Assembly: GCA_007376485.1 (NCBI GenBank)
Contig: VMGJ01000001.1
Coordinates: forward strand, 41,788-105,787
DNA length: 64,000 nucleotides
Source of the DNA: Parcubacteria group bacterium Licking1014_17
Lineage (GTDB): Bacteria; Patescibacteriota; Minisyncoccia; 2-02-FULL-40-12; IGHO2-01-FULL-4-A
Reading direction: 5' to 3'
Both the position numbers and the translations under genes were made by a program. The number at the start of each line of letters is the position of its first letter. Positions within the stretch are counted from its first letter, which is position 1. The notes beneath the pieces were generated by a model, which did no database searches, was not told the DNA's origin, and worked only from the letters and a program-made list of their open reading frames with translations. Below are positions 20,030 to 39,815 of the stretch, in pieces.

Positions 20030-20253
20030 TATGACCTCCGATTTTGAATAGGTTAAACACGTTTTAGATTAGCATCTATTTATCGCTGTTGTTTAAATTG
20101 TCAAAGAACAATTCCGTTATACGATATTATGGGGTTTTAGTAAATAACATGAACTAGGTAAAGCCCTCGCCATTCTTCGGCAGCGGGTTATTTTTGTCTT
20201 GTTTATAACTGATTATTGTATTGTTTGCCGGCCGTGTTACGATACAGATAACA

Positions 20254-22860: not shown

Positions 22861-22938
22861 CAATTAAATAGATTTCCCCACTTCTCAACAATCCGCGGTT
22901 TAACTTCCCCGCGGTTTTGTTAAAATATACAGGTAACA

Positions 22939-25900
22939 ATGAAAAGGATTGATTTAAAGAAGATCATCCATACTGGTCAGTTTTTTGCCGTGAAAAAGAT
23001 TTTCGCAACAAAAAGAACTCTCAAGCTGATTTTTGCCGCTGCCATAACAGCTACCGTCATATTTATTGTCATTTTCTCCTTTGTTAATGCCGGTCTTTTC
23101 AACTTCTATCCTCAAACCTGCCTTGGCGACTGGGAATACGCCGAAAACGCTTCCGGCAAACCCGACCTTCCTCCCGACGCCACTACCGAGAAATTTGATA
23201 AGAACAATTCCGCCTTCTTTTCCGGCGGTTACCGCAAGATATTCTGTGGCAACTTCAGAAGCAATGATGAATCCGGAGATAAAATCTTCCAGAAAGCAAA
23301 ATTGAGGTTGTCGTGGACACTCGTGCCGGACATCAACTCTGCGGTGCCTGTCATCGACCAATCCGAGTTTCAAAAAAATATACTGGATTATAGCGGGGAC
23401 GAAAAGATTATCGTGGTTCCCGATGAAGAAAAATCCGCTCCCGAAAAACAAGAGAATACGGTTTTACCTTCACCCGATGTAAGTTCATCAGCCGAAGAAA
23501 AAACACTGGAGCCGGTTCCGTCAGAATCACCCAGCCCTCAATCCGAATCGATTCCACCGACCGAGTCACCGCAATCTCCGGCGGAAGAGAATACCGCCCA
23601 AGAAAACGCTGATGTCGGCGAGCCGAGCAGTTTTAATGGAACATCTTTATTTAAAATGGGGCTTCTTGGCGTTTTCAGGACAGCGCTTACAGAGAATATC
23701 GGATCACTTCTGGGGTTAATAATGGAAATTAACAACAACAGCAGTTCCAGCTTGGAGGAAACGCTAACTCCTACAGAGCCCTCGGTTTTCATGCCCGAAA
23801 TAAGTATGGAGACGACTTCTGAAAAAGTTGAAACAAGTTCTACGCCCGCGAGCATTGCCGCCGGCGACGGCACGGCCTCAAAATCGGAATCCCCTCTGGA
23901 AAAAGAAATAATACCGCCAAAATCTTTGGATGATTTTCTTGAAATACTTTACAGCGTTGACGGCAAAAACTGGGAATCCATCGGCAATGTAAATCTTGAC
24001 AGTTTCAATAACGCCGAATTTGAGGTGCCTATTATTTCATGGAACGAACTGGCGAATCTCCAAATCAGAATCGGCGGGACGGGGCTGACGGACAGCGTGA
24101 GCGGAGTGTATTTGGACGGGATGTGGCTGGAAGTCAGTTATAGCGACAGTCAAGACGAGGTTGTTAGCGAGGATATAATGAGGGGATTGCCGAAAGTTCA
24201 GGTCAAAGACTCGGACGTTTTCAAATCAAAGAAAAAAGATTTTCGCTTTAACGAAGACGTGAAGTTTGAAATTAATCTTGGAAAAACGGCTTCCGGGAGC
24301 GTTGATGAAAACACGAAACCGCCAGCAACGCCTGAACCGTCGTCGCTTCTCAAAAATTCTTATAAAAATATTTTGGGCGCCGAGAGCGCCTTAGCCGCCG
24401 GCAGGATTGTTGAAGCCAGAGTATACAGCCCGACCGGCAAGCTGACAAATATAAAACCGTATATCAAGCAAGATACGGGGACTGAAACCGCGCAAATCTT
24501 TTTTTCGCCGCCCGGGCGAGCATACAAATCGGGCAAATACAAACTGGTCGTTGAGATTCTTCAGGATGACCGGGTAGTTGTGGCGGAACACGATTTTACC
24601 TGGGGTGTCCTTGCTTTGAACGCCAATAAGTCCATCTATATACCGGGCGAGTCGGCTTATCTTCAGTTCGCTTCGTTGAGCAATATAGGGCACACTTTGT
24701 GCGACAGCAATCTTGAGCTCATTATCACTCCGCCAAAAGGGCCAGAGTGGGTATTAAGCGTAGAGGACGGCGATATAAAAAGGAGCGACACCTGCGGACC
24801 CAATAATTATACCGACAAACCGGATTACTACGCGTATTACACGCCCGAATACACGGGCGCTTACGGACTCACACTGAAAAATTTGGATAACGGGAATGAA
24901 ATAACCGACTCCATTCAAGCCGACGGTTTGGTTGATATGGATGTGGAACGCGTCGGTGCGACGCGCATTAATCCGTTTTTGGGACAGAACTATTTTACGA
25001 CCATTAATATCAAAGCAGGTCAGCCTTTTGAGGGAGAAATTGTGGATACGCTCCCAAAGGGATTTGTGGTTATGGGCAGTTCCGATTACATTGTCCGCAA
25101 AACACCGACGGGCGACGTAGAAGTAGTATGGAGAAAAATTTTATTGCGTGGGGACACGGCTATCCTGACCTATGAATATGACCCGGCTGATATCTCGCCG
25201 GAGCTGTTTCTTCTGGGTCCGTTAAAATTTATCGCGAAGTCGGATCCGCTATCGTCTTTTTTTCAGGAAGCGCGCCAGTGGCAACTGGCGTCGGATTATT
25301 CCTGCGTCGCAAAAGCGACCGGCGCCTGGAGTGCCAGCGGCACTTGGACAACATGTAATTCAACCACACCCCAACCGACGGATACGGTTACAATCGCCAC
25401 AACATATGTTGTGACATTGGATACTTCGGCTACCATCGCCGGTCTTAGCCTTGCAAACACAGCTCAACTGAATCATCCCGGCACAAATGCCCTAACTGTG
25501 AATGGTTCAGTTGCCCTTACACCGCCGCCGACAGTCAATTTTAATCAATGGAACATTGCGGGAGGTACCGCGACCGTAACCGGCGCGATAACGTGGGGTG
25601 CCGGTGGCAGTTCAAAGGTATCTAAGATTTTAATTACAACCGGAACATTAAATGCCAGTGGCGGATTATCATTCGGCTGCCTTAATTACCCGGCAAGCTG
25701 CCTTATTGATATGTCGGGGGGCGCGGGCACTTTAAATTTAAGCGGCGCCATAACAAGCGTAACCAAAGGGCAACTAACGGCCGGGACCACCAGCACTTTC
25801 GTATACGCTGACCAGAGTGCCGACCAAACAATACAAATGGCTTGGGGCGGCGGCAGTTACAATAATCTTGGAATTAATAACGGCGCTAAGGTGGCAACCG

Positions 25901-28900
25901 TAGCCGAAAATATAACGACATCAAACGTGAGCGGTAGTATAACAGTTACCAGTGGCACTTTCAACGCCAGTAATGTTACGATTGCGGGCAACAGCGGCAA
26001 AACATTTGAGGTTGATAACGGAGCCACCTTCACGATGAGCGGCAATACAACTTTTCCGACCGGCTTTTCCACGTTTACTTTTCAGAGCACGAGCACCACA
26101 AAATACGGACAGAGTGTGGATTCGGATATTTCGGCGCAGAGCTATGGTTATCTGATAGTCAGTCCTGTTGCCGACCCCTCCAGCCACAGCGCTGATTTTT
26201 ATCTTGCTTCGGGAACCATTTCCACCGCCAGTGCTTTTATTGTCGCTTTGGGTTCCGCTGCCACTTCAGTTTTTGTTAATGCCGACACGAACGACCCGAC
26301 TCTTGATATAAACAGTTATTTGTCCATAGGCGCGAGCACGACTTTTCAGGCTTCAAATTCCGGAACTTTCACCATCAACGGCAGTTTGTTTAACGCCGGC
26401 ACGTTTACCCACAATAGCGGCACCGTCACTTTTGACAGCACCGCGAGCGGCAGGGGGATAAATATGAACGGCAGTTCACTATATAACTTGACGATTAACG
26501 GTTCCGGCGGCGAATGGTCGTCGCTCACAAATATGCTGACAGTAGCCAATGATTTAATCTTGACCGCCGGAACTTTAAACAATGCTTCCGGCAGTGCGGA
26601 CATTGAAGTCAACGGAAACGTTTCCTGTAACGGCACCTGCGGCACAGTCAGTTTGACAGCCGGAAAGTTTACCCAGAAAGTTGCCGCCGACAAAAATTTC
26701 GGAACGTCAGTGGCTGTTGCCACTGCCTGGACTTTCAATGCCTTGCATTTCACCAACAGCAGCGGCACCGACAGGATAATCACAACCAGTACCACCGGCA
26801 CCGGAACCATCACCGTAACAGCTTCCATGTCCATCGGCGTTTTCAGCGCCACCAACAAAGCCACGCTTGACGCCGACCACAGAACCTGGATTTTAAGCGG
26901 AAGTAATGAAGCCGATGCACACATTCCTCTTTCCATTGACGCCACCAAAGGAGCTCTAACCGCTCACGCATCGATTTTCCGCTACACCGGCAGTTCCACT
27001 ACCACAATCGAGGCGGCAACCTACTACAATCTTGAAGTAAAACCCGGTGGTGCCGTGACCCATACTTTCAAAGCGGGGACGACGACGGCTTACACTTTAA
27101 CCGCGGGAGACGGATCCAATAGCGGAACAATAACCACCAATACCAATAGCACGACCCTTGATATTGGTTTTGGAGGAGTTTCTATAGCTGCCTATGGCAC
27201 TCTCGTCGCCCATGCCAGCAATGCTTTTACTGTTGAAGGTTCATGGACAAACGCCGGCACTTTTACTCATAGTAGCGGCACGGTAACTTTTGACGGAACG
27301 ACGGTAGCTTCAATTCCAGTAACAACCGGCGGCAGTTCTTTCAATAATTTAATGATAGCGGGAGCGGGTAACTTCGCATTGCAGGATTCAACGACAATCG
27401 CCGGCGATTTGAAAGTAAACAGCGGCACCTTTTCTGGTGGCGTTGTCACGACTGTTAACGGCGACGTAACTTGTGTTACCACCTGCGGCACGATAAACTA
27501 TGCCAGCGGTATTTTTATACAAAACGTTGCCGGAAACAAAGCCTTCGGCACTACCGCCGGTACTGCTACGTGGACATTTAATGTTCTTCACTTTGCCGCC
27601 AGTGACGGTACTGACAGGGTGATTACCGCCAGTTCGGGTGGCACCGGAACCATCACCGTCACTGCCTCCATGTCCATCGGCGTATTCAGCGCCACTAACA
27701 AAGCTACGCTTGATGCCGGCAACAGAACATGGATTTTAAGCGGAAGCGACTCAAACGGTGATTCTCCCCTATCTATAGACGCCACTAAGGGCGCCTTAAC
27801 CGCTAACACGTCAACTTTCCGTTATACCGGCAGTTCAGCCACTACGATTGAGGCGGCTACTTATTACAATCTTGAAGTAAAACCCGGCGGCGCCGTGACC
27901 CATACTTTCAAGGCGGGGACAACAGGAGCAAATCATTTACTTACTATTGGCGACGGAGCTAATAGCGGAGTCGTAACAGCAAATACCAACAGTACTATTT
28001 TGGATGTAGGCGACGGCACAAGCGGCAGCGGCGTTTCAATCGCCGCCAGCGCCACGCTGACGGCCAACGCCAGCAACGGTTTCACGGTTTACGGCTCATG
28101 GACAAACGCCGGCACGTTTACCCACAGCAACGGCACGGTTACCTTTGACGGGGATGATGACTTAATTAGCTTTACCCTTACTCCGGCAAGCAGTCCATTC
28201 TACAATCTGACCGTAAATAATACGGGAGGCGCAATATGGACATTACAAAGCGGTCAGACTCTTATTGTAGCTAACGATTTATATATTAACGGCGGGACAC
28301 TGAACGACGATAGCGCTACTGCCATGGTTTTTAACGGAAACGTAACCTGTTCGGTGACCTGCGGTATTATCAACACCTCTGCCAATGTTATCCAAAACGT
28401 TGCCGCCAATAAAGTCTTCGGCACTACTGCCGGCACCGCCGCCTGGACTTTCAAAGCCCTTCATTTTGCCAACAGCAATGGAACCGACAGATTAATCACT
28501 ACCAGTTCGGGTGGCTCCGGAACCATCACCGTCACTGCCTCCATGTCCATTGGCGTTTTTAGCGCCACCAATAAAGCTACGCTTGATGCCGGCAATAGAA
28601 CTTGGATTTTAAGCGGGAGCGACTCAAACAGTGATCCCCCCTTAACTATTGACGCCTCCAAAGGGGTTTTGACTGCCAATACATCTACATTCAGATTTAC
28701 CGGTAGTTCCGCCACCACAATCGAACAAGCGACTTATTACAACCTTGAAGTAAAACCCGGCGGCGCCGTGACTCATACTTTCAAAGCGGGAACAACAGCG
28801 GCTTACGGGCTAACCGCTGGAGATGGAGTCAATAGCGGAGTCATAACGGCCAACACCAACAGCACAATCCTTGATATAGGTTTTGGGGGAGTTTCCATAG

Positions 28901-31227
28901 CCGCCAACAACACCCTTATTGCCCATGCCAGCAATGCTTTTACCTGCGAAGGTTCCTGGACAAACGCCGGCACATTCACCCATAGCAACGGCACGGTAAC
29001 TTTTGACGGAACTGGTTCCCACACAATTAATAACGGGGATAAAACCATTAATTCTTTTTACGGTCTAATAATTAATAAGGCGGGTGGAGTTTGGGATGTT
29101 ACGAGCAATGATATTGTAGTTCAATACTCACTTACAATAACAGCGGGAACTCTTGATTTAAACGGGCAGGGGTTATCTGCTAGTCTGACTTTGGTCAATG
29201 ATGACACTCTGCGTCTTCAAGGCGGTGAAACGATAACTGGATTAACTATGGACACAAATTCGGGGACAGTTGAATATGATGGCACTACCGGATACACCGG
29301 GCTTAAGGCAGGAAATGAATATTTTAATCTGAAATTTAGCGGTTCCGGAGGTTCTTGGACGTTAAATCATGACTTAGTCGTAAATGCCACTTTTGCTATT
29401 ACAAACGGAACAGTGGATGCGTCCGGTTCAAATTATGATATCAGCGTCGGCAAAAGCTGGAATAATGCCGGAACGTTCACCGCCCAGCAGGGTGCGGTCA
29501 CTTTTGACGGCAATTTTAATGTGGCGACATGGGGTATCACAACTGGCAGTAGTCCTTTTTATGATTTGGTAATAATCGGACCCGACCCCTATATGATCAG
29601 TAGCGACATTACTGTCCAAAACGATTTGGACGTGAACGGAAGCACCTTAAACGGCTTTGGTTCAAATGTCATGACCGTCAATGGAAATGTTACCTGCGTC
29701 ACTACTTGTGGCACTATTTCTGGATTAAATCTTTTCCAGACTGTCAGCGCAAACAAAGTCATTGGGCCCGTTACCGGCACGAACGACTGGTCGTTTGGTT
29801 TTCTTCATCTGTCCACTTCCGGAGGTTCGGACAGAACCATTACCGTGAACAGCGGAGGTAGCGGGGCATTTGCCGTGGCTTCCTCCATGTCCATCGGTGT
29901 TTACAGCGCTTCCGCGAAGACCATTCTTGACGCGGACAATAAGACATTTATATTGAACGGCAGCGACGAAGCCGATGGAGATGTTCCGTTCACCGTCGGC
30001 GCCAACGGCACTTTTACGCAAAATACTTCCACTTTCAGATTCGCCGGCACTTCGGCGACCACCGTTGCTGCGGGAACTTATTATAATTTGGAAATAAAAC
30101 CGGGCGGAACAGGCACTCACACCATAGCAAGCGGCGCTTTGAAAACGAATAATAATTTTGTAATTGGCGACGGGACGCATACCGGCTCGGTAAACGCTAC
30201 GACAAACGACCCCAATATCAACGTGGACGGAAGCTTTTCAATCGCGGCGAGTTCCGAGTTTGTTGCTTCTGACGCCGGAACATTTTCAATAGCCAAAAAC
30301 TTTTCGAATTCCGGCGCATTTACCCATAGCAATGGCACGGTAACTTTTGACTCACTTAACAACAGCACCGTCAGCGGCTCTAATACAATCTTTTATGGTT
30401 TATCGATGGCGACTGACAACAAAAAAATGAGGTTCACTGCCGGGCAGACGTTTGAAACTGACGGATTGATGACGCTTGGCGGTTCCGATGCCGACAATCA
30501 GGTTCAAATCGTTTCTACCGCCTCTGATTCGCAATGGTTTATAAATCACCAAGGGACCGAAAGCGTGAACTATACGTACGTCCATGATTCGGGTTGCGAC
30601 GCTTCCTCAACGGACATAACAGTTACTACGGGTACCGACGGCGGCAACAACGGGCTATGCTGGGTGTTCGATTATAATATAACGGTTGCGCTCTGTTCGG
30701 ATCCCGACATTGATTTTGGAACTTTGGCGCCGGGCAGCGGCAGGGTTACCAGAACCTCGTGTATTTCGATTAACACCAACAATCCCAGCGGTTATTCGAT
30801 CAGCGCCGGAAGGGACCGGGCAAGTCCGGCAACCACGCTTGCCTCCGAGGGGGATACAAGCATTAATATTTCCGATACGCTGAACGGCATTGATGTTTTT
30901 GACGGATTATCCAGTTGCACCGCCAGCCCCAATATAACTTCGCCGTGGGTTGAAGGTGCGTCAACAGGCCTCGGCTATGTTCTTTATAGAGCCGATGTCG
31001 GTAAAAGCACAACATGCTGGGGCACGGGGACAAACGAAACCGATTCCGCGAACCGATATGCTGCCTTGCCGGCTTCAAATGGACCGGCGGATGTATTTTT
31101 GAATGTGCCCGTAAATTCTCCGAATCCTTCCTATTCTTCGGTCGGCTGGAGTTTGGATATCCCCACAAATCAAATTCCCACTTCTTACGGCGGTATGGTG
31201 ATTTATTCAATTACCGCTAATCCTTAA
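22939..31227 (+). CDS. giant (2762 aa) repetitive cell-surface protein
   Basis: N-terminal TM, S/P/E-rich linker, ~285-aa tandem repeats ('TFTHSNGTVTFDG..TGTITVTASMSIGVFSATNKATLDAGNRTWILSGS..'), C-terminal ~230-aa domain shared with 33669..34433. Confidence 0.85.
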   Translation: MKRIDLKKIIHTGQFFAVKKIFATKRTLKLIFAAAITATVIFIVIFSFVNAGLFNFYPQTCLGDWEYAENASGKPDLPPDATTEKFDKNNSAFFSGGYRKIFCGNFRSNDESGDKIFQKAKLRLSWTLVPDINSAVPVIDQSEFQKNILDYSGDEKIIVVPDEEKSAPEKQENTVLPSPDVSSSAEEKTLEPVPSESPSPQSESIPPTESPQSPAEENTAQENADVGEPSSFNGTSLFKMGLLGVFRTALTENIGSLLGLIMEINNNSSSSLEETLTPTEPSVFMPEISMETTSEKVETSSTPASIAAGDGTASKSESPLEKEIIPPKSLDDFLEILYSVDGKNWESIGNVNLDSFNNAEFEVPIISWNELANLQIRIGGTGLTDSVSGVYLDGMWLEVSYSDSQDEVVSEDIMRGLPKVQVKDSDVFKSKKKDFRFNEDVKFEINLGKTASGSVDENTKPPATPEPSSLLKNSYKNILGAESALAAGRIVEARVYSPTGKLTNIKPYIKQDTGTETAQIFFSPPGRAYKSGKYKLVVEILQDDRVVVAEHDFTWGVLALNANKSIYIPGESAYLQFASLSNIGHTLCDSNLELIITPPKGPEWVLSVEDGDIKRSDTCGPNNYTDKPDYYAYYTPEYTGAYGLTLKNLDNGNEITDSIQADGLVDMDVERVGATRINPFLGQNYFTTINIKAGQPFEGEIVDTLPKGFVVMGSSDYIVRKTPTGDVEVVWRKILLRGDTAILTYEYDPADISPELFLLGPLKFIAKSDPLSSFFQEARQWQLASDYSCVAKATGAWSASGTWTTCNSTTPQPTDTVTIATTYVVTLDTSATIAGLSLANTAQLNHPGTNALTVNGSVALTPPPTVNFNQWNIAGGTATVTGAITWGAGGSSKVSKILITTGTLNASGGLSFGCLNYPASCLIDMSGGAGTLNLSGAITSVTKGQLTAGTTSTFVYADQSADQTIQMAWGGGSYNNLGINNGAKVATVAENITTSNVSGSITVTSGTFNASNVTIAGNSGKTFEVDNGATFTMSGNTTFPTGFSTFTFQSTSTTKYGQSVDSDISAQSYGYLIVSPVADPSSHSADFYLASGTISTASAFIVALGSAATSVFVNADTNDPTLDINSYLSIGASTTFQASNSGTFTINGSLFNAGTFTHNSGTVTFDSTASGRGINMNGSSLYNLTINGSGGEWSSLTNMLTVANDLILTAGTLNNASGSADIEVNGNVSCNGTCGTVSLTAGKFTQKVAADKNFGTSVAVATAWTFNALHFTNSSGTDRIITTSTTGTGTITVTASMSIGVFSATNKATLDADHRTWILSGSNEADAHIPLSIDATKGALTAHASIFRYTGSSTTTIEAATYYNLEVKPGGAVTHTFKAGTTTAYTLTAGDGSNSGTITTNTNSTTLDIGFGGVSIAAYGTLVAHASNAFTVEGSWTNAGTFTHSSGTVTFDGTTVASIPVTTGGSSFNNLMIAGAGNFALQDSTTIAGDLKVNSGTFSGGVVTTVNGDVTCVTTCGTINYASGIFIQNVAGNKAFGTTAGTATWTFNVLHFAASDGTDRVITASSGGTGTITVTASMSIGVFSATNKATLDAGNRTWILSGSDSNGDSPLSIDATKGALTANTSTFRYTGSSATTIEAATYYNLEVKPGGAVTHTFKAGTTGANHLLTIGDGANSGVVTANTNSTILDVGDGTSGSGVSIAASATLTANASNGFTVYGSWTNAGTFTHSNGTVTFDGDDDLISFTLTPASSPFYNLTVNNTGGAIWTLQSGQTLIVANDLYINGGTLNDDSATAMVFNGNVTCSVTCGIINTSANVIQNVAANKVFGTTAGTAAWTFKALHFANSNGTDRLITTSSGGSGTITVTASMSIGVFSATNKATLDAGNRTWILSGSDSNSDPPLTIDASKGVLTANTSTFRFTGSSATTIEQATYYNLEVKPGGAVTHTFKAGTTAAYGLTAGDGVNSGVITANTNSTILDIGFGGVSIAANNTLIAHASNAFTCEGSWTNAGTFTHSNGTVTFDGTGSHTINNGDKTINSFYGLIINKAGGVWDVTSNDIVVQYSLTITAGTLDLNGQGLSASLTLVNDDTLRLQGGETITGLTMDTNSGTVEYDGTTGYTGLKAGNEYFNLKFSGSGGSWTLNHDLVVNATFAITNGTVDASGSNYDISVGKSWNNAGTFTAQQGAVTFDGNFNVATWGITTGSSPFYDLVIIGPDPYMISSDITVQNDLDVNGSTLNGFGSNVMTVNGNVTCVTTCGTISGLNLFQTVSANKVIGPVTGTNDWSFGFLHLSTSGGSDRTITVNSGGSGAFAVASSMSIGVYSASAKTILDADNKTFILNGSDEADGDVPFTVGANGTFTQNTSTFRFAGTSATTVAAGTYYNLEIKPGGTGTHTIASGALKTNNNFVIGDGTHTGSVNATTNDPNINVDGSFSIAASSEFVASDAGTFSIAKNFSNSGAFTHSNGTVTFDSLNNSTVSGSNTIFYGLSMATDNKKMRFTAGQTFETDGLMTLGGSDADNQVQIVSTASDSQWFINHQGTESVNYTYVHDSGCDASSTDITVTTGTDGGNNGLCWVFDYNITVALCSDPDIDFGTLAPGSGRVTRTSCISINTNNPSGYSISAGRDRASPATTLASEGDTSINISDTLNGIDVFDGLSSCTASPNITSPWVEGASTGLGYVLYRADVGKSTTCWGTGTNETDSANRYAALPASNGPADVFLNVPVNSPNPSYSSVGWSLDIPTNQIPTSYGGMVIYSITANP
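26395..29010 (+). repeat. tandem ~856-nt (285-aa) intragenic repeats, 3 near-identical units plus degenerate units to ~30.4 kb
   Basis: Unit starts marked by 'GGCAC.TT.AC.CA.A..A.CGGCAC.GT.AC.TTTGAC' at ~26398, 27258, 28110, 28966; long identical stretches e.g. 'GTCACTGCCTCCATGTCCATCGGCGT' recurring. Confidence 0.8.
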
Positions 31228-31230
31228 CTT

Positions 31231-33588
31231 ATGTTTATCAGGGATGATTTTATAAATAGTTTTGATTATATTCTCTACAGGATAATCAGGTTCGGCATTC
31301 TGTTCGTGCCGTTTATTTCTCTGGTTGTAATTAGGAATATTTATTCGCCGTTTGAATTCAGTAAAGGGATTGTTTTCCGGGTAATCACCGAAATAATTTT
31401 TTTCATTTATGTTTATCTGGCGTTTAAATATCCGAATCTCCGCCCGTCTTTTTTTAAAAAAAGGCCGGATAAATATGTGCTGGCCGGTTTGGTCGCCTTA
31501 GTGGTTCTCGTAGTATGGCATTTTATTTCCGGATTATTCAGTTCAAGCTGGACTCTTAGTTTTTGGGGCTATATAGAGAGGATGGGCGGCATTTTCGCGT
31601 TGCTTCACTATATCGCTTTTTTTGGAGTTGCCGCTTCAATACTGCGCACGAGGAAAGAGTGGGAAAATCTTATCTGGGCTTCGGTGGCGGCGGCGCTGAT
31701 TTCATCAGTTTACGGCATTCTGCAAAAATATTCCGTAAGCGCGGTTGTCGGCGCGGACCAGAGGTTCAGAATTTTCGGGACCGTCGGCAACCCGGCTATA
31801 TTCGCCGGCTATCTGCTTTTTAATTTCTATTTTGTTTTATACCTGTCTTCGCGTCAGGAATCGAAAATACGCAGATTCCTTCTGTATTTCGCCGCATTCA
31901 TATTCGCATCCGCGATAATTTTGTCAGCCTCCCGGGGAGCGGCGGCGGCTCTAATTGTAAGTTTTGTTTTTTTGATTTTTTATATTCTGTATAAAAAAAG
32001 CGCCAGTCCATACGGAAAAAAGAAGAGCTTGATTATCGCGGCGCTCGCGGTAGTCATTATTGCCACAATTTTTTCCGGGATTGTATTAACTCGTTCCGGG
32101 TCCGGGCTCGGATATTTTTCCAGACTGACCGATTTCAGTGTGAAGAGCGGCTCCATAAATTCGCGGTTGCTTGTCTGGGGCATGGCGCTAAAAGGGATAG
32201 CCGAAAAACCGGTTTTGGGCTGGGGTCCCGAAAATTTTATAGCCGTTTATTACAAGAAATACGACCCTAAAATGTATGAGTCGCCGGCTCAAGATTATTC
32301 TTCTGACAGGGCTCATAATATTATTTTGGATTGGCTGGCTGCCGTCGGTGTTGTGGGCTTGCTGTCTTATCTGCTGATTTGGTACTGCGCGATAAGGAAA
32401 ATTGGCGCCCGGGATTACAATGATATGCCGTATTTTTCTCGAGGAGCGCTTTATGCCGCCGCCGTCGCGTATTTTGTTTTTAATTGCACTTTTTTTGACA
32501 CGACTAACACTTATCTGATGGTTATTTTTTTTATGGGCTTGGCTTTTCTTTGGGACGATTATGTGGCAGACGGAGTGGCGACAAAAGTGCCGGAAGGTAA
32601 TACCCCGGTCAACACCGTAGTCGGCGTATTGGCTCTGGTTTCCTGTTCTATTTTAATTATCTGGGCGAATATCCTGCCGTTTCTGTCAAACTATTATACA
32701 AATATGAATAAGAGGGCAAACAGCAGGGGGGATTTCGGGGAAGCGTTTAAGTATCTTGAACTCGCGAGAAACACCGCCACATGGACGGAAACCGACGCCG
32801 TGAGGAATTTAACTTCAGAACTGATAACCGCCCTGAACACGCAAGCGGATTATTTTAAAAACGAAGATAACAGAAAATCTTTCGGGGTTATCGCGCAGGA
32901 TCTTCGCGACGAGATGGAAAAACGTCCGGAGGACGCCGCTTCGTACACTTTTTTATTTAAAATGGAACAAATACTCGCGGCAAATTTTGGAAAGCAGATT
33001 AAACCCGTTGAAGATACCATCTGGACAGCAACCGCCATATTTCCCAAATTGATTCCGCTTTATTATGAACTTTATTACAGCGCCTTGATACGAAATGATT
33101 TTGAAGGAGCCACGAATGTAGCGAACAAAATATTGGAAATCAGACAGGACTTGCCCTTTGGAAAGTTTTGGCTCGCGTATGTCATAACTCGGAAGGATTT
33201 AAACGATAAAAATAGGACAAAACTGCGGAGTTCTTTAAATACCTTGGGCGACAGCTTTGACAGTTCGTTGTTTAACGCAGGCGATAATTACGGCAGTATA
33301 AAACCGTTGCTTGACGAGTTGAGTTATAAATTAAGGAAGACGGGTTATTATCTGGAGATGAGAGATTTGCATTTAATGATAGCAAAATATAAGCCTTCAA
33401 GTTATGTTTATGCGAGCTACGCGAGTTATATGATGCGTGACTTAAAATCAGCCATGAAATACGCCGACGAAGCGCTCGCTCTTGACAATAGCCTAATGAG
33501 CAGTAAGGACTATGAAACATTAGCCGACATTTATGGGGCATTGGGTGATAGAAAAAAACAAGGAGAAGCATACATAAAGATTCAATAA
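31231..33588 (+). CDS. Wzy_C (O-antigen ligase / O-oligosaccharyltransferase-like) polytopic membrane protein with C-terminal TPR repeats
   Basis: 785 aa; ~12 TM helices; 'SASRGAAAALIVSFVFLIF' matches Wzy_C/RfaL/PglL-type ligase core; C-terminal ~300 aa of TPR-like helical repeats ('DYETLADIYGALGDRKKQGEAY'). Confidence 0.65.
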   Translation: MFIRDDFINSFDYILYRIIRFGILFVPFISLVVIRNIYSPFEFSKGIVFRVITEIIFFIYVYLAFKYPNLRPSFFKKRPDKYVLAGLVALVVLVVWHFISGLFSSSWTLSFWGYIERMGGIFALLHYIAFFGVAASILRTRKEWENLIWASVAAALISSVYGILQKYSVSAVVGADQRFRIFGTVGNPAIFAGYLLFNFYFVLYLSSRQESKIRRFLLYFAAFIFASAIILSASRGAAAALIVSFVFLIFYILYKKSASPYGKKKSLIIAALAVVIIATIFSGIVLTRSGSGLGYFSRLTDFSVKSGSINSRLLVWGMALKGIAEKPVLGWGPENFIAVYYKKYDPKMYESPAQDYSSDRAHNIILDWLAAVGVVGLLSYLLIWYCAIRKIGARDYNDMPYFSRGALYAAAVAYFVFNCTFFDTTNTYLMVIFFMGLAFLWDDYVADGVATKVPEGNTPVNTVVGVLALVSCSILIIWANILPFLSNYYTNMNKRANSRGDFGEAFKYLELARNTATWTETDAVRNLTSELITALNTQADYFKNEDNRKSFGVIAQDLRDEMEKRPEDAASYTFLFKMEQILAANFGKQIKPVEDTIWTATAIFPKLIPLYYELYYSALIRNDFEGATNVANKILEIRQDLPFGKFWLAYVITRKDLNDKNRTKLRSSLNTLGDSFDSSLFNAGDNYGSIKPLLDELSYKLRKTGYYLEMRDLHLMIAKYKPSSYVYASYASYMMRDLKSAMKYADEALALDNSLMSSKDYETLADIYGALGDRKKQGEAYIKIQ

Positions 33589-33668
33589 TCTACCTGTGGA
33601 TAATGCTATTTGCGCTTGTTTGCAGGGGGTTTATAATTAAATGAGTTTATTAATTACCTACACATACC

Positions 33669-34433
33669 ATGAGTAAAAAGCCGTCGTTTTTCTCGGCGAG
33701 TGCCGAATTGAAGGTTGTGGTATTCGTTGCCGTGTTTGTCTTCTTTTCTTGGATTTTTATTGATAACAGAATCTATTTTAATTTTTTTAAATCGTTGGAC
33801 GCCAACGCGGCCACAAGCGGAACGGCCAGCCAAAATATGAGTATTGATGTGGGTGTGGGGCTTACTTTCGTGAAATACAGCAGTGTTGCATGGCGCAATG
33901 ATTCGGAGACTCCCACGAGTACTATAACTTCCGGCACTCCTCTGCATTCTACGCAAGCCTTGCAGGTTACGACTAACGACAATTACACAATATCGGTCGG
34001 TCGAAAAAGGCAAAGCCCCAATACGACACTCGCTTCGGCCAGCGATGTGACTATTCATATAGAAGATGCGAGTACAGGTATTGATGTTTTTAACGGGCTG
34101 GCAAATTGCACTACTGCTACAAGCACGACAGCCTACTGGCCTGTCACGGGAGCTGTATCAGTCGGTATTGGCTTCAGCAACTGGAAAACCCAGATTGCCG
34201 GCGATAAAAGCTCTTGCTGGGGAACGGGGACTGTAGATAATGAATCTACCCCCTCCACAAATAGATATGCCGCGCTTCAAGCGTCAGCCAGCGCCAGTAC
34301 GTTTTTGTCAACTACTAATCATCCCTTGGGGGTTTCGTATTTTTCCGTCGTGTACCGACTAGACGTAACGGCTAGCCAAAGAGCCACCAACTATTCAGGC
34401 ACGGTTAATTATACGGCGACTACCCAACCCTGA
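33669..34433 (+). CDS. small surface protein sharing the giant protein C-terminal domain
   Basis: 254 aa; N-terminal hydrophobic anchor; aligned motifs with end of giant protein: 'IDVF(N/D)GL', 'SCWGTGT', 'NRYAAL', C-terminal 'Y(S/G)G(T/M)V.Y..TA'. Confidence 0.7.
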   Translation: MSKKPSFFSASAELKVVVFVAVFVFFSWIFIDNRIYFNFFKSLDANAATSGTASQNMSIDVGVGLTFVKYSSVAWRNDSETPTSTITSGTPLHSTQALQVTTNDNYTISVGRKRQSPNTTLASASDVTIHIEDASTGIDVFNGLANCTTATSTTAYWPVTGAVSVGIGFSNWKTQIAGDKSSCWGTGTVDNESTPSTNRYAALQASASASTFLSTTNHPLGVSYFSVVYRLDVTASQRATNYSGTVNYTATTQP

Positions 34434-34475
34434 TCGATTTTGCGCCGCAACGGCAACTAATTTAAATGATTAATT

Positions 34476-35405
34476 ATGATGAAAAGATTTAACAAGAAAA
34501 TAATAATAACACTGGTGATTATTTTGGGTGTTTTTATGTTATCTCTTGGTTTTGTTTGGGCGATAGGCGTGGGGATATCCATTTCTCCATTGAAATATAA
34601 ATATAGTGTCGACCCAGGCACGGTTATAGATGATGTGATTAATGTCGGCAATCCGAATGCAGGTGATCTTAGAGTGAAGGTTGAGTTTCAGGATTTTATG
34701 GTTACCGAGGGTAATAATATCAAATGGATTCCAAACGACATCGAGAACCCCCATAAAATGGTTGACTGGATTGATATTGATACGGAGCCGTTTACGGTGG
34801 CCCCGGGGAAACAGGTAGCCGTGCCCTTTAAAATAAATGTCCCGAAAAACGCCACTCCGGGAGGAAAATACGCGGCAATATTTTTCAGCGAGGCGGATAA
34901 AGGTGGCGGAAATTTATTAGGCGCGATCGCACGTGTCGGGTCACTGATTATTATGAATGTTAATGGTGACGTCAAGCAAACCGGGCAGCTGGTTGATTTC
35001 ACCGGGCCCACCATAGCGTGGAGCGGACCGGTCAATTTTGTTCTTAGTATGATGAACGTGGGCACCACGCATTTTGAGGTAAAGCCGGTGGTCACGATAA
35101 ATAATTTTTTCTGGCAAAGCGCAAAGATATTGCCGGAGTCAAAATTTATTTATCCCAATGTCAAGAGAGATATTCCGATTAAATGGGAGAAAAGCAATCC
35201 GTTCGGATTGTACAGCGCCAAAGTTTCCGTAACCGATGGGGAGGGGACTGTTTTTGAGAAAACAAAATGGTTTGTCGCAATTCCGGCTACATATGCCATA
35301 ATAATACTGGCCGTTGTTTTGGTGTTATGGTTTGGAATCAGGTTCTTTAAGCATACGTTCAAAATTTCCAAGATTATTACCAGAAAAAGCAGATCGGCAG
35401 CCTGA
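34476..35405 (+). CDS. surface protein with signal peptide and C-terminal TM anchor (paralog 1)
   Basis: 309 aa; N-terminal TM/signal, 'PGGKYAAIFFSEA', C-terminal 'AIIILAVVLVLWFGIRFFKH' + basic tail. Confidence 0.65.
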   Translation: MMKRFNKKIIITLVIILGVFMLSLGFVWAIGVGISISPLKYKYSVDPGTVIDDVINVGNPNAGDLRVKVEFQDFMVTEGNNIKWIPNDIENPHKMVDWIDIDTEPFTVAPGKQVAVPFKINVPKNATPGGKYAAIFFSEADKGGGNLLGAIARVGSLIIMNVNGDVKQTGQLVDFTGPTIAWSGPVNFVLSMMNVGTTHFEVKPVVTINNFFWQSAKILPESKFIYPNVKRDIPIKWEKSNPFGLYSAKVSVTDGEGTVFEKTKWFVAIPATYAIIILAVVLVLWFGIRFFKHTFKISKIITRKSRSAA

Positions 35406-35424
35406 TATTAATTATTATTTAATA

Positions 35425-36303
35425 ATGCTTAGAAACTTTCTAGTTATTGTTGGCGTAGCTTTGGTTACGTTGTTTTTTCCCTTTTTTGTCCATGCTTACC
35501 AGGGAGGAATTCTTTTGGATCCCGTAAAAATCGAACTTGACGTTTTTGCGGGACAGGCGGCATCTAGAGAGATAACAATTACGAATCAAAATCCGTTTGC
35601 GGTGACGATCAGTCCGGAAGTGATGAATTTTAAAGTTAGTGAGAACAGCGAAATTCACTGGTATATCGGCGCGATTTCAGACCCATTGCGGAGTTCGGCC
35701 TGGCTGGAGGTAGACGAAAAATCCTTTGTCCTTAAATCCGGCGAAGCAAAAAGAGTCGGAGTCAGCGTGGCAATACCCGCCGATACCCAACCGGGCGGTA
35801 GATATGCGACCGTTTTTTTCAACAGCAAGCCCGTTGATGCTCAAAATAAAAACGCGGACGTAAGAGCCGGCACTATGGTTATCATCAATGTACCCGGCGC
35901 CATCAGTAAAGCCGGGAATATTGTCGGTTTTAATTCGCCTTTATTCGTCATCGGCGGGCCGCTTGATTTCATCGTAAAATTCGCGAACACCGGCAAGACG
36001 CATTACAACACCAAAGCGACCCTGAAAATATCCAATTTATTCTGGAATGTCGCCAATATTTCAAGCGACCAAAAATTTTTATATCCGGACGTCATACGCG
36101 AGATTCCGATCAAATGGAACACGGCTTCCCTTTTTGGCATCTACACCGCGCAGCTGTCCGTTACCGACGGCCAGGGCGTCGTACATACGGCAGAGAAACA
36201 TTTTGTAGGCGTTTCCATCAAATATTTGGCGCTGCTCATTGCCTTAGGATTTATTGCCTGGTTTGGGAGAAAAAAACTTCTGGCCAGAAAAAGTAGCGCG
36301 TAA
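35425..36303 (+). CDS. surface protein with signal peptide and C-terminal TM anchor (paralog 2)
   Basis: ORF open from 35314 but upstream gene ends 35405; ATG 35425; 'PGGRYATVFFNSK', C-terminal 'YLALLIALGFIAWFGRKKLLARK'; co-linear similarity with 34476 gene. Confidence 0.65.
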   Translation: MLRNFLVIVGVALVTLFFPFFVHAYQGGILLDPVKIELDVFAGQAASREITITNQNPFAVTISPEVMNFKVSENSEIHWYIGAISDPLRSSAWLEVDEKSFVLKSGEAKRVGVSVAIPADTQPGGRYATVFFNSKPVDAQNKNADVRAGTMVIINVPGAISKAGNIVGFNSPLFVIGGPLDFIVKFANTGKTHYNTKATLKISNLFWNVANISSDQKFLYPDVIREIPIKWNTASLFGIYTAQLSVTDGQGVVHTAEKHFVGVSIKYLALLIALGFIAWFGRKKLLARKSSA

Positions 36304-36319
36304 TTTATTTCTCTAACTA

Positions 36320-36964
36320 ATGGTTGATAAGTTTTCACACAAGATATTTTTTGTGTTCCTGTTTGCAGCCCTGGTTTTTATTTGTATAACAAAAGTATAC
36401 GCGGCAGATCCAGTAGACCAAAACGTTACTATAACCGTAGGGCAAACCGGTATTGTATATTTGAATTTTACTTTTAGCCCCCAAGGCAGATGGACCGGCG
36501 GAGGAAATAATGACGCGTCAAATGTTGTCGTTGAGGTAAGACCCGTAGACGGCAATAAGGACAGTATAATTTTTAGCGAGGAAGTGACTACCGACAACAG
36601 CGGCCAATATTCATCCTTGCTTCTGGATAATGTAAGTCCGGGAACATATGACGTGAGCGCCAAGGGTTGGGCAACTCTAAGAAAAAAGGAGGTAACCGTA
36701 ATATTGGCGGAGGGCAATAACACCATTGATTTTACCGACACGGGCGCCGATAAAGCCCTCTCCGGAGATTTGGATTCAACGACCCGGGTCGGAAGCGCCG
36801 AAAGCGGTGATAACGAAATCAGCGCCGCCGATTATTCAACTTTGATCGGAAATTACAATACGGTGCAGGACAGGTATGATTTGGATAAATATACGGACCA
36901 GTTAATCGCCGGCCCGGATTATTCAATTCTTGTATCGAATTATAGCCAAGAAGGCGACCAGTGA
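36320..36964 (+). CDS. secreted protein: carboxypeptidase-regulatory-like domain + dockerin-like tandem Ca-binding repeats
   Basis: Signal peptide 'FFVFLFAALVFICITKVYA'; 'LDNVSPGTYDVSAKGW' (CarbopepD_reg-like); C-terminal duplicated 'GDLDSTTRVGS..ISAADYSTLIGNY' / 'DRYDLDKYTDQLIAGPDYSILVSNY' dockerin-like. Confidence 0.55.
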   Translation: MVDKFSHKIFFVFLFAALVFICITKVYAADPVDQNVTITVGQTGIVYLNFTFSPQGRWTGGGNNDASNVVVEVRPVDGNKDSIIFSEEVTTDNSGQYSSLLLDNVSPGTYDVSAKGWATLRKKEVTVILAEGNNTIDFTDTGADKALSGDLDSTTRVGSAESGDNEISAADYSTLIGNYNTVQDRYDLDKYTDQLIAGPDYSILVSNYSQEGDQ

Positions 36965-36977
36965 TGTTTTATAAAAA

Positions 36978-37658
36978 ATGAATACGCGCTTTTCAGTCAA
37001 AATTATTTTTTTTACCGCCGTTCTGGCATTAGTTATTATTTTATTGGCATTCAACAACAAGGAGAGCCGAAATAACGGTAATAATTTGATAACCGTCTAT
37101 GGAAATGTGTTAAATGCCCGGGATAATCTTCCCCTTGGCAGTGTTACTGTCCAATCGGGCGAGTCCAGAAGCGTAACTGATTATCAGGGCAAATTTGTCT
37201 TACTGAATGTCCCCCGAGACGGTGAAATAAGGATTGAAAGCGGAAACTTATATGAAGAAGTTATTATTCCTATTAATGGGCGATCGAACATTACCGTTTA
37301 TCTGGATGGAGATTTGCTTGGAATTTTTCGGGATATTGAGCGATATGAAAACAACAGGCAATATTCAAAAATCTATGACCTATTTACGCCTGATTTAAAA
37401 AAACATTACACGCTGGATGCTTACTTGAAAAAAAAGAATAGCTGGCGCGATAACATTACGGAGGGAAAAAATTATGACGGGTTCAAAATGGAATTTCTGC
37501 GCCATACCGTCAAAGGCGGCAATTCTTCATCTATTATAACGGTTACTACTAAATATTCCTGGCTTAAGGGCGAGGAAACTAAATATATTCACGCAATTGA
37601 TGTAAAATTAATATGGGACGGCAACATCTGGGAGTTGGGCAATGATTTGATCTGGTAA
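36978..37658 (+). CDS. membrane-anchored protein with carboxypeptidase-regulatory-like domain
   Basis: 'VYGNVLNARDNLPLGSVTVQSGESRSVTDYQGKFVLLNVPRDGEIRIE' matches CarbopepD_reg-like beta-sandwich pattern. Confidence 0.55.
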   Translation: MNTRFSVKIIFFTAVLALVIILLAFNNKESRNNGNNLITVYGNVLNARDNLPLGSVTVQSGESRSVTDYQGKFVLLNVPRDGEIRIESGNLYEEVIIPINGRSNITVYLDGDLLGIFRDIERYENNRQYSKIYDLFTPDLKKHYTLDAYLKKKNSWRDNITEGKNYDGFKMEFLRHTVKGGNSSSIITVTTKYSWLKGEETKYIHAIDVKLIWDGNIWELGNDLIW

Positions 37659-39815
37659 ATGAATTTTAAAGGCAAAAATATTTTTTACTACGCAAGCCGG
37701 TTGTTTTTCGGGTTCTTTGCGCTCGCCGGCATTTTTTATTTTTTATCGTGTGATGCCAGGGCGGCTGTCACAATGGACATGACCGCCTCCGCCGGCGTCA
37801 AATATGTCGGTACCACGTTTAATGTCAGTGTGAGGGTAAAGTTGGATAGTCAGAATATTGATACCGTTTCGTTGAGAAATCTGAACTTTGACCACGATAT
37901 TTTGGAAATAACCGGAACGTCCATCCAGAGCTTGTTTTCATCCCAAGCAACATTAAGAAATGTTACCGACAACACCGCGGGGACAAAAAGGCTCGATATC
38001 GGCAAATTGCCGCTAACCGATGATTACACCAATTCATCGGCAGCTACATTTGCAATTTTAACCTTTAAGGTGAAGAACGTTGGTACCGGAACGACAACCT
38101 TAACAATAGATTATGACGGTAGCCCGGGAAAATCCGGAGTTTTTTTGGCAGGAACAAATTATTTGGCGTCGGTGCTGCCGCTTGATGTTTCGCTTGGTTT
38201 GGACGACACGGGACCGGCTTTCAGCAATTGTACGCCCGTGGCTAACGTCGTGAACCAGCAGGTTACCGCCAACATAGTTTGCGACGTAACCGACACGGAG
38301 ACTGGAGTTTATCTGGGAGGTACGACTCTGACTGTCAACGGCATCACTTATTCCAATAGCGGAGCTAACCAGTACACAAGCGCCGAGATTGCCAACGGTT
38401 ACCAGTTGACCGTGAATCCCGAAGATAATCTGCCCTACAACACGTCCATAACGGTCAGCGGATCCGCGCAGGATAGCGCCTATGATGACGGTCCGGTACT
38501 GGCGCGAAATACCGGCACACTGGCGGAATACGCGTTTACCACCGAGGATGACGATGACGCGCCGACTATTTATAATAAAAGCCCCGACTCCGGCGCCACA
38601 AGTATTTCAGTGTCAACTAATGTCAGTTTTGGCATAAAAGACATTGCTGTTCCGGGAGACTATAATGGTCTTGGCGTTGATATTGATAGTATTCAAGTGA
38701 TTATATCCGCCGATAACTGGGGAACTGTAACCTACACTCACGGCGGCGAAAAACAATTCAGCCATTCCGGCAATCAATACGATTATACCATCACGATCAA
38801 CCCTTCGCCGGATTTTCCCCAAAATACCACCGTTACCGTAAGTATTGCCGCTGACGACCTGCACAGTTCACCTAATTCAGTATCCACCTCTTATTCGTTT
38901 ACCACGGCGGATACCTCTCTGCCGACATGTTCCAATTTTATACCGGCGGAGAATAAAGCGGATATCGAGCCAACCGACACTATCTCTTTTGATTGTTCCG
39001 ATTCCGGGGCAGGAATTAATATAGATACCATAAGCGTGATCGTTAATAAATCCACCTATACAAAATCAAAGAGCGGTTTTTCGTATACTGGCGACTCATC
39101 AAAATACAATATAGTCATAACTCCGCCGGGCGGATTTGCTTATGATTACGCTTTTGAGGTGATAATCAACGGCAGAGATATGAAAAGCAACTCAATAACG
39201 GAGACTAGCTACGGGTTGGCTACAAGAATACAAGGGGGAGGCGGCGGAGGCGGCGGAGGAGGAGGGGGAGGGGGAGGAGGAAATCAATGCCCGACCTGCC
39301 AAGTATGCCCGGCGCAACCATCGCCGGAATTTTCCAATGGGCCTTTGCCGACAGAAAATCCTTACTCAACTCCAAAACCCGGGAAAACACCCAATCCGGC
39401 CATTTGTCCTTCAATAGCACCCGAAGTTCCTTATCAAATACCGTTTGCCCCGACAATTGAAGATATGCAATCTGTCGCGTTGCAAAAAGTCAACGGGACC
39501 GATGTTCAAGGCATCACCATTTATCAAATATCCGGACCGATGATTACATTGGAAGGAACCGCGAAACCGCAGGGTTTGGTTGGCCTCCAAATGGAACCGG
39601 GACCGATTGTGGTCCAAACAATCGCCGACAACAAAGGTGAATGGAAAGTAACCATATCCAATGTTCTGGGTCCCGCCGAAAATCTGCTATACGCGATCTC
39701 CCGCAACCCAATTAACGGCGCCACGGAAAAAAAATTCCTGATTATCCTTCATAACACCTATAAAGGCATAGATGCTTATCTCCGGGCGCAAAAGATGAGA
39801 ACGCAACTTTGGTAG
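37659..39815 (+). CDS. cell-surface protein: cohesin-like N-terminal domain, three Ig-like repeats, poly-Gly + Pro-rich linker, C-terminal domain
   Basis: Signal/TM; 'TTFNVSVRVKLDSQNIDTVSLRNLNFDHDILEITG..ATFAILTFKVKNVGTGTTTLTIDYD' cohesin-like; repeated 'D(T/D)..P..S(N/P)..P' Ig-like units; 16xGly; 'NQCPTCQVCPAQPSPE..'. Confidence 0.6.
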   Translation: MNFKGKNIFYYASRLFFGFFALAGIFYFLSCDARAAVTMDMTASAGVKYVGTTFNVSVRVKLDSQNIDTVSLRNLNFDHDILEITGTSIQSLFSSQATLRNVTDNTAGTKRLDIGKLPLTDDYTNSSAATFAILTFKVKNVGTGTTTLTIDYDGSPGKSGVFLAGTNYLASVLPLDVSLGLDDTGPAFSNCTPVANVVNQQVTANIVCDVTDTETGVYLGGTTLTVNGITYSNSGANQYTSAEIANGYQLTVNPEDNLPYNTSITVSGSAQDSAYDDGPVLARNTGTLAEYAFTTEDDDDAPTIYNKSPDSGATSISVSTNVSFGIKDIAVPGDYNGLGVDIDSIQVIISADNWGTVTYTHGGEKQFSHSGNQYDYTITINPSPDFPQNTTVTVSIAADDLHSSPNSVSTSYSFTTADTSLPTCSNFIPAENKADIEPTDTISFDCSDSGAGINIDTISVIVNKSTYTKSKSGFSYTGDSSKYNIVITPPGGFAYDYAFEVIINGRDMKSNSITETSYGLATRIQGGGGGGGGGGGGGGGGNQCPTCQVCPAQPSPEFSNGPLPTENPYSTPKPGKTPNPAICPSIAPEVPYQIPFAPTIEDMQSVALQKVNGTDVQGITIYQISGPMITLEGTAKPQGLVGLQMEPGPIVVQTIADNKGEWKVTISNVLGPAENLLYAISRNPINGATEKKFLIILHNTYKGIDAYLRAQKMRTQLW
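39232..39282 (+). repeat. GGN codon homopolymer (16 consecutive Gly)
   Basis: 'GGGGGAGGCGGCGGAGGCGGCGGAGGAGGAGGGGGAGGGGGAGGAGGA'. Confidence 0.85.

Follow-up and report, generated by a model that had tools for sequence, protein, structure and literature searches.

How do bacteria of the candidate phyla radiation (CPR), which are thought to live attached to host cells by means that are largely unknown, hold very large proteins at their surface? The question is raised by a 64,000-nt window, the whole stretch of DNA analysed here, from Parcubacteria group bacterium Licking1014_17. Two tandem genes on its + strand, encoding paralog A (34476..35405, 309 aa) and paralog B (35425..36303, 292 aa), lie directly downstream of a gene for a secreted 254-aa protein (33669..34433, +) whose C-terminal domain, hereafter the partner domain, recurs at the end of a 2,762-aa giant protein encoded further upstream (22939-31227, +). 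We find that A and B are related through their first domain to the DUF916/WxLIP proteins of Firmicutes and that members of their family are almost always encoded next to a partner domain of the type found in Pam pilins. In our reading, A and B are probably membrane-anchored chaperones of the PamC/PamD class that act on the C-terminal domains of the 254-aa and giant proteins by strand insertion.

A first description of the Pam pilus appeared in 2026, from a single cultivated Saccharibacterium, Ca. Mycosynbacter amalyticus, of which two filaments were solved (Troman et al., bioRxiv 2026, doi 10.64898/2026.03.03.709456). The roles proposed there are a single-domain tip subunit for PamT, an RbmA-like terminator with a transmembrane (TM) anchor for PamR, and PapD/FimC-like chaperones for PamC and PamD which, unlike periplasmic chaperones, carry a C-terminal TM helix. 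The pilins were reported mainly in Saccharimonadia and Microgenomatia, and neither DUF916 nor WxL is mentioned (Troman et al., 2026).

Architecture of the two paralogs

A and B align co-linearly over their full length (BLASTP, 33% identity and 54% positives over 298 columns, E=8e-61), with no large insertions, with N-termini that are equivalent past the signal peptide, and with the motifs PGGKYAAIFF (A) and PGGRYATVFF (B), and MNVGTTHFE (A) and ANTGKTHYN (B), in register. A hydrophobicity scan placed an N-terminal hydrophobic segment at residues 9-27 of A and 5-23 of B and a C-terminal TM segment at residues 266-284 of A (helix to ~288) and 260-278 of B, each followed by a basic, K/R-rich tail (RFFKHTFKISKIITRKSRSAA in A, GRKKLLARKSSA in B). 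The signal peptide of A is likely cleaved after VWA. Between the two hydrophobic segments, A (AlphaFold2 model, pLDDT 80.9) has two beta-sandwich domains: domain 1 (residues ~33-165), which is DUF916/WxLIP_PGBD-like and holds the PGGKYAAIFF motif, and domain 2 (residues ~166-268); B has the same architecture. By the same scan, the N-terminal segment is present in 132, the C-terminal TM segment in 136 and the basic tail in 133 of 140 family members.

The initial annotation, made from the sequence, had described tandem co-linear paralogs with a signal peptide, a C-terminal TM anchor and a basic tail, and this description holds with one correction: the start listed for B, a TTG at 35314, would make it overlap A, and the plausible start is the ATG at 35425 (MLRNFLV...). 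The placement of the pair directly downstream of the shared-domain protein was likewise right, with gaps of 42 nt from the 254-aa gene to A, 19 nt from A to B and 16 nt from B to the gene that follows. Paralog A is 100% identical to CEN90_60, and the 254-aa protein to CEN90_59. A 135-aa antisense open reading frame (ORF) inside the gene for A (34688-35095, -) is unsupported and most likely arises from nothing more than how the sense gene is composed.

Domain 1 is related to DUF916/WxLIP

The family of A and B is large. A profile seeded with A, B and five relatives and searched exhaustively against 1.84 billion proteins recovered 15,928 cluster representatives at E<=1e-3 (2,162 of them at E<=1e-30), far more than word-indexed homologue searches, which returned just five relatives of A and two of the 254-aa protein. 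Against Pfam, A matched PF06030 (DUF916/WxLIP_PGBD) at 22.3 bits (E=1.4e-4), under the gathering score of 27.3, and B gave no PF06030 match; 58 of the 140 relatives matched it, the best at 2.4e-9. Beyond this sub-threshold similarity, nothing emerged from NCBIfam and Pfam scans of A, nor did a single-sequence search of the PDB with A yield a match. With the family profile as query, EfmWxLIP1 (9i25_C, 9i1y_A; E=1e-4) was the sole significant sequence in the PDB.

We then compared the CPR family with WxLIPs from eight genuine WxL clusters of Enterococcus, Melissococcus, Lactococcus, Bacillus, Listeria and Lactiplantibacillus plasmids, located through tryptic peptides in the supplement of Hassan et al. 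(2023). In hhalign, the family aligned with these eight co-linearly through both domains (99.0%, E=7.7e-18, 234 columns). Removal of signal peptides and TM helices left a core-versus-core value of 97.1%, and domain 1, similarly trimmed, aligned with the DUF916 domain at 97.9% (E=6e-13); unrelated beta-rich profiles used as controls gave 0.1-0.3%. On these profile comparisons, domain 1 is homologous to DUF916/WxLIP_PGBD. Homology of domain 2 to DUF3324 is weakly indicated (20%, E=1e-3, 40 columns, compared with 0.4% for domain 2 against domain 1), and DUF3324 (PF11797) had no Pfam match in the 140 members. The WxLIP motif NQIDKxxxYFDLK is absent from the CPR family: in the profile alignment it faces a gap, with (I/L)SP...PG instead. 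The resemblance to the DUF916 partners of WxL loci put forward in the initial annotation is thus borne out for domain 1, and is only weakly indicated for the DUF3324 part. CscA, to which it had likened their architecture, does resemble the paralogs, but their closest known counterpart is the CPR pair PamC/PamD. Isolated 'DUF916' matches in a Kazan bacterium and in TM7x had been listed, and left uninterpreted, in a supplementary table of Hassan et al. (2023).

The partner domain is of the Pam pilin type

Over its last ~187 residues, the 254-aa protein matches the C-terminus of the giant at 42% identity (E=9e-31); in the giant the domain spans residues ~2567-2762 (30637..31227, +) and reaches the last residue. 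In the 254-aa protein, an N-terminal hydrophobic segment is followed by the partner domain alone, a truncated immunoglobulin (Ig)-like domain of the Pam pilin type, and the protein is in this respect PamT-like.

The domain was also checked as a candidate WxL domain. Its size and C-terminal position fit, but the two Trp-x-Leu motifs are absent, with GY-x-hydrophobic and Y-x-G-x-V-T-x-T instead; Pfam gave no match even at E<5, and hhalign against 16 true WxL domains gave 0.5-1.7%, which is not significant. The domain is therefore not detectably WxL. The architectural parallel between WxL and Pam acceptor domains is striking, with a small and a large protein ending in the domain in each case, but homology between them is not supported by sequence and fold searches.

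The NCBIfam scan pointed elsewhere. NF058581 (CPR_Pam_pilin_C) was matched by 39 of 59 members of the partner-domain family, the best at 5.9e-48, and NF058579 (PamT) by 18, and saccharibacterial proteins adjoining chaperone-like genes (relatives of A and B) clear the curated NCBIfam cut-off. The 254-aa and 2,762-aa proteins of the window themselves had no match to the NCBIfam Pam models; their subfamily aligned in hhalign with the C-terminal domains of 76 two-domain pilins at 98.2% (E=2.9e-14, 159 columns). By this profile evidence, the partner domain belongs to the Pam pilin C-terminal-domain superfamily and, because it falls with the CPR_Pam_pilin_C and PamT families, the paralogs fit PamC/PamD. 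No protein of the window other than those of 254 and 2,762 aa has the domain, and there is no two-domain shaft pilin of the PamA/PamB/PamE type (~340-500 aa).

Co-occurrence across genomes

Genomes were scanned with the motif PGGHYAA[IV]F, common to a 13-sequence subset of the family, and 74 loci were found, almost all of them in Patescibacteria lineages (Saccharibacteria, Berkelbacteria, Uhrbacteria, Falkowbacteria, Parcubacteria, Buchananbacteria, Microgenomates and Gracilibacteria). A hidden Markov model (HMM) built solely from the 254-aa protein, the C-terminus of the giant and two homologues matched ORFs directly upstream of the chaperone-like gene elsewhere (E down to 8e-18). Once iterated, it found 146 partner-domain proteins in 70 of the 74 loci, with the chaperone-like gene directly downstream on the same strand at a median gap of 110 bp, so that the co-occurrence with the domain (taken as 230 aa in the initial annotation, which proposed this check) extends to other genomes. 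Three of the four loci lacking the domain are cut by a contig end, and the fourth, L082 (Terriglobales, 21% identity), is the only one with a full upstream region and no partner domain. The domain ends at most five residues from the C-terminus in 144 of the 146 proteins. When all ORFs were clustered without supervision, the chaperone-like and partner-domain families were the only ones common to most loci.

The partner-domain proteins range from single-domain forms of up to 270 aa (42 proteins) through 271-420 aa (81) and 421-1,000 aa (19) to a few of more than 1,000 aa, of which four were found with one HMM (sdom5) and seven in all with an HMM of an earlier iteration. The giants include L010 (>2,879 aa), L014 (2,567 aa), L017 (2,190 aa), L080 (>2,066 aa) and the protein of the window. 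In L010, L014, L017, L080 and L013, labelled Saccharibacteria or Berkelbacteria, proteins of >1,280 to at least 2,879 aa ending in a Pam-type domain lie upstream of the chaperone-like gene; next to them come, in most cases, one or two ~205-aa single-domain proteins and then a lone chaperone-like gene. The nearest relative of the window, L083, keeps the order of large domain protein, Wzy_C/TPR protein, 254-aa small protein and A-type gene, and has no B. In ~12 loci the chaperone-like gene is present as a tandem pair or triplet, and in a neighbour-joining tree of the sampled family these go back to separate duplications.

Some of the loci come from metagenome-assembled genomes titled Gammaproteobacteria, Dehalococcoidia, Pirellulales or Terriglobales (L023, L036, L037, L049, L053 and others; L077, L078, L028, L082). 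In the tree, those titled 'Gammaproteobacteria', such as L037, form tight groups with loci of Patescibacteria, and their title is probably wrong.

Proposed mechanism and alternatives

From family membership and gene context, we infer a physical interaction between the paralogs and the partner domains, and the scheme that follows, including any division of labour between A and B, has this basis. A and B would be exported by Sec and stay tethered to the cytoplasmic membrane by the C-terminal TM helix, leaving the basic tail in the cytoplasm. Out in the wall zone, the two would bind the open, truncated Ig-like domain at the C-terminus of the 254-aa and giant proteins by insertion of a beta-strand, that is, by donor-strand complementation, which would keep these subunits folded; they may then hand the subunits to the donor strand of the next subunit, hold the finished assembly on the cell, or both. 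Because the locus has no two-domain shaft pilin, its product is probably a short assembly and not a long pilus: the giant adhesin would carry the small protein as a cap, and one of the paralogs would hold it. The initial annotation had suggested a surface-anchoring complex for the giant protein; the profile comparisons and the co-occurrence described above support this interpretation, with a partner domain that is not detectably WxL.

The lack of a shaft pilin in the window would also suit a static scaffold of the kind suggested for WxLIP and WxL in Firmicutes, in which A and B are permanent wall or membrane anchors that bind peptidoglycan and hold partner-domain proteins as a surface platform, with no hand-over or polymerisation. 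A further point in its favour is that domain 1 is homologous to the DUF916 'peptidoglycan-binding domain', and the locus mirrors a minimal WxL cluster, with a small and a large protein bearing the same C-terminal domain next to a TM-anchored DUF916 protein. We nevertheless regard it as unlikely: relatives of the Pam-pilin-type partner domain polymerise by donor-strand exchange in the solved filaments (Troman et al., 2026), peptidoglycan binding by DUF916 is itself merely a docking prediction, and the WxLIP motif is missing. That A and B are nothing but generic Ig-like surface adhesins with a function unrelated to their neighbours, similar to DUF916 merely through a common beta-sandwich fold, is highly improbable and was already disfavoured by EfmWxLIP1 being the only significant PDB match, by hhalign values of 97-99% against true WxLIPs compared with 0.1-0.3% for the controls, and by the conserved linkage to the partner domain (70 of 74 loci).

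A different division of roles is conceivable if one paralog were a PamC/D-like chaperone while the other acted as a terminator like PamR, giving up its own N-terminal strand to anchor the assembly. The end-to-end alignment of A and B and their equivalent N-termini argue against such a split, and so does the neighbour-joining tree, in which the two are each other's closest relatives; this suggests a lineage-specific duplication and not two ancient classes, and leaves split roles doubtful. We favour PamC/PamD-class chaperones for both paralogs.

Relation to the Pam pilus and WxL clusters

By their published description, PamC and PamD resemble A and B in having a signal peptide, a pair of beta-sandwich domains folded like PapD/FimC and a TM helix at the C-terminus. 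In both cases, a CPR host encodes two paralogs in one operon with secreted proteins whose last domain is a truncated Ig-like one; among these proteins is a single-domain, PamT-like one. The locus studied here differs from that of the Pam pilus in its Parcubacteria-group host, in having no PamA/B/E-type shaft pilin, in the fusion of the acceptor domain to a 2,762-aa protein, in the Wzy_C/TPR gene within the cluster, and in pilin-like domains that escape the NCBIfam Pam models.

With WxLIP/CscA proteins of Lactobacillales and Bacillales (DUF916, DUF3324 and a TM helix; EfmWxLIP1, PDB 9i1y and 9i25), A and B share architecture, length, domain 1 and the TM helix with its basic tail. Both adjoin a small and a large protein with a common, strictly C-terminal domain of ~190 aa, and for both the mode of action proposed is strand insertion into the incomplete beta-sandwich of the partner. 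However, the CPR family is without NQIDKxxxYFDLK, its PGG(H/K/R)Y motif is unseen in the Firmicute proteins and its domain 2 is not convincingly DUF3324; the partners lack WxL motifs or detectable WxL homology, and the CPR clusters have no LPXTG protein and do not show the two or more WxL-domain proteins of a WxLIP gene cluster. As for the chaperones PapD, FimC and CfaA, A and B show no sequence similarity to them (no PapD Pfam match) and, unlike them, are membrane-anchored rather than soluble, in a monoderm envelope and with no usher.

The family has probably been described twice already, as DUF916/WxLIP in Firmicutes and, in a single CPR bacterium, as PamC/D. We found no literature on DUF916 or WxL in connection with Saccharibacteria or Patescibacteria, nor did we find reports of the proposed homology between DUF916/WxLIP and PamC/D, of the breadth of the module across CPR classes, or of the recurrent variant made of a giant, a PamT-like protein and a chaperone. 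The module of chaperone and acceptor domain reaches well past Saccharimonadia and Microgenomatia, by label to Parcubacteria, Uhrbacteria, Falkowbacteria, Berkelbacteria, Buchananbacteria and Gracilibacteria, can mount proteins of 2,000-2,900 aa, and suggests a way of predicting surface-displayed giant CPR proteins. Its membrane-anchored component is homologous to DUF916/WxLIP of enterococci, listeriae and lactobacilli, and this homology makes a question about WxL virulence clusters testable, namely whether WxLIP is an anchor or a strand-donating chaperone. More tentatively, the Pam chaperone-like proteins of CPR and the Firmicute WxLIP/CscA proteins might form one family, with the Pam pilus and the WxL clusters as branches of one ancient, usher-less donor-strand-complementation system of monoderms, and the giant loci displaying a single huge adhesin rather than a filament. 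Were this so, WxL domains would be predicted to be degenerate pilin-type acceptor domains.

Neighbouring genes

The two paralogs lie in a closely packed run of + strand genes (20221-39815) in the order 879-aa protein, 2,762-aa giant, 785-aa Wzy_C/TPR protein, 254-aa protein, A, B and three more secreted proteins. Intergenic matches in a scan for consensus promoters and terminators were no better than chance. Ahead of its partner domain, the giant has a passenger part (22939..30636, +), a putative adhesin with an N-terminal hydrophobic segment, a Ser/Pro-rich region and repeated ~290-aa units rich in Thr, Gly and Asn. The 879-aa protein (20221-22860, +) is a paralog of this passenger region (39% identity over 744 residues, E=1e-113) that ends ~50 residues past the point where the Pam-like domain of the giant starts, and is thus without an acceptor domain.

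Between the giant and the 254-aa gene lies that for a 785-aa polytopic membrane protein (31231..33588, +) with an O-antigen-ligase/PglL-like Wzy_C domain (Pfam Wzy_C, 7e-21) and a TPR-like C-terminus. A protein 32% identical to it occupies the same position in L083, but the gene does not recur as a family across the 74 loci. Given the unexplained density seen on a serine of PamA (Troman et al., 2026), its product could glycosylate the Pam-like subunits.

Downstream of B, the 214-aa secreted protein (36320..36964, +) has a weak CarboxypepD_reg-like match. In 14 loci (e.g. L043:11004-11900), eight of them with tandem chaperone-like genes, these genes are directly followed by one for a ~300-aa protein with Dockerin_1 (6e-9) and Big_6 domains. 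The 214-aa protein stands in this position and shows dockerin-like D-x-D repeats by eye; BLAST against the recurrent dockerin protein was not significant, and it is a possible counterpart. Lastly, the 718-aa secreted protein at the end of the run (37659-39815, +) combines Big_5 Ig-like domains (4.7e-7) with 16 consecutive glycines, after which comes a Pro-rich segment.
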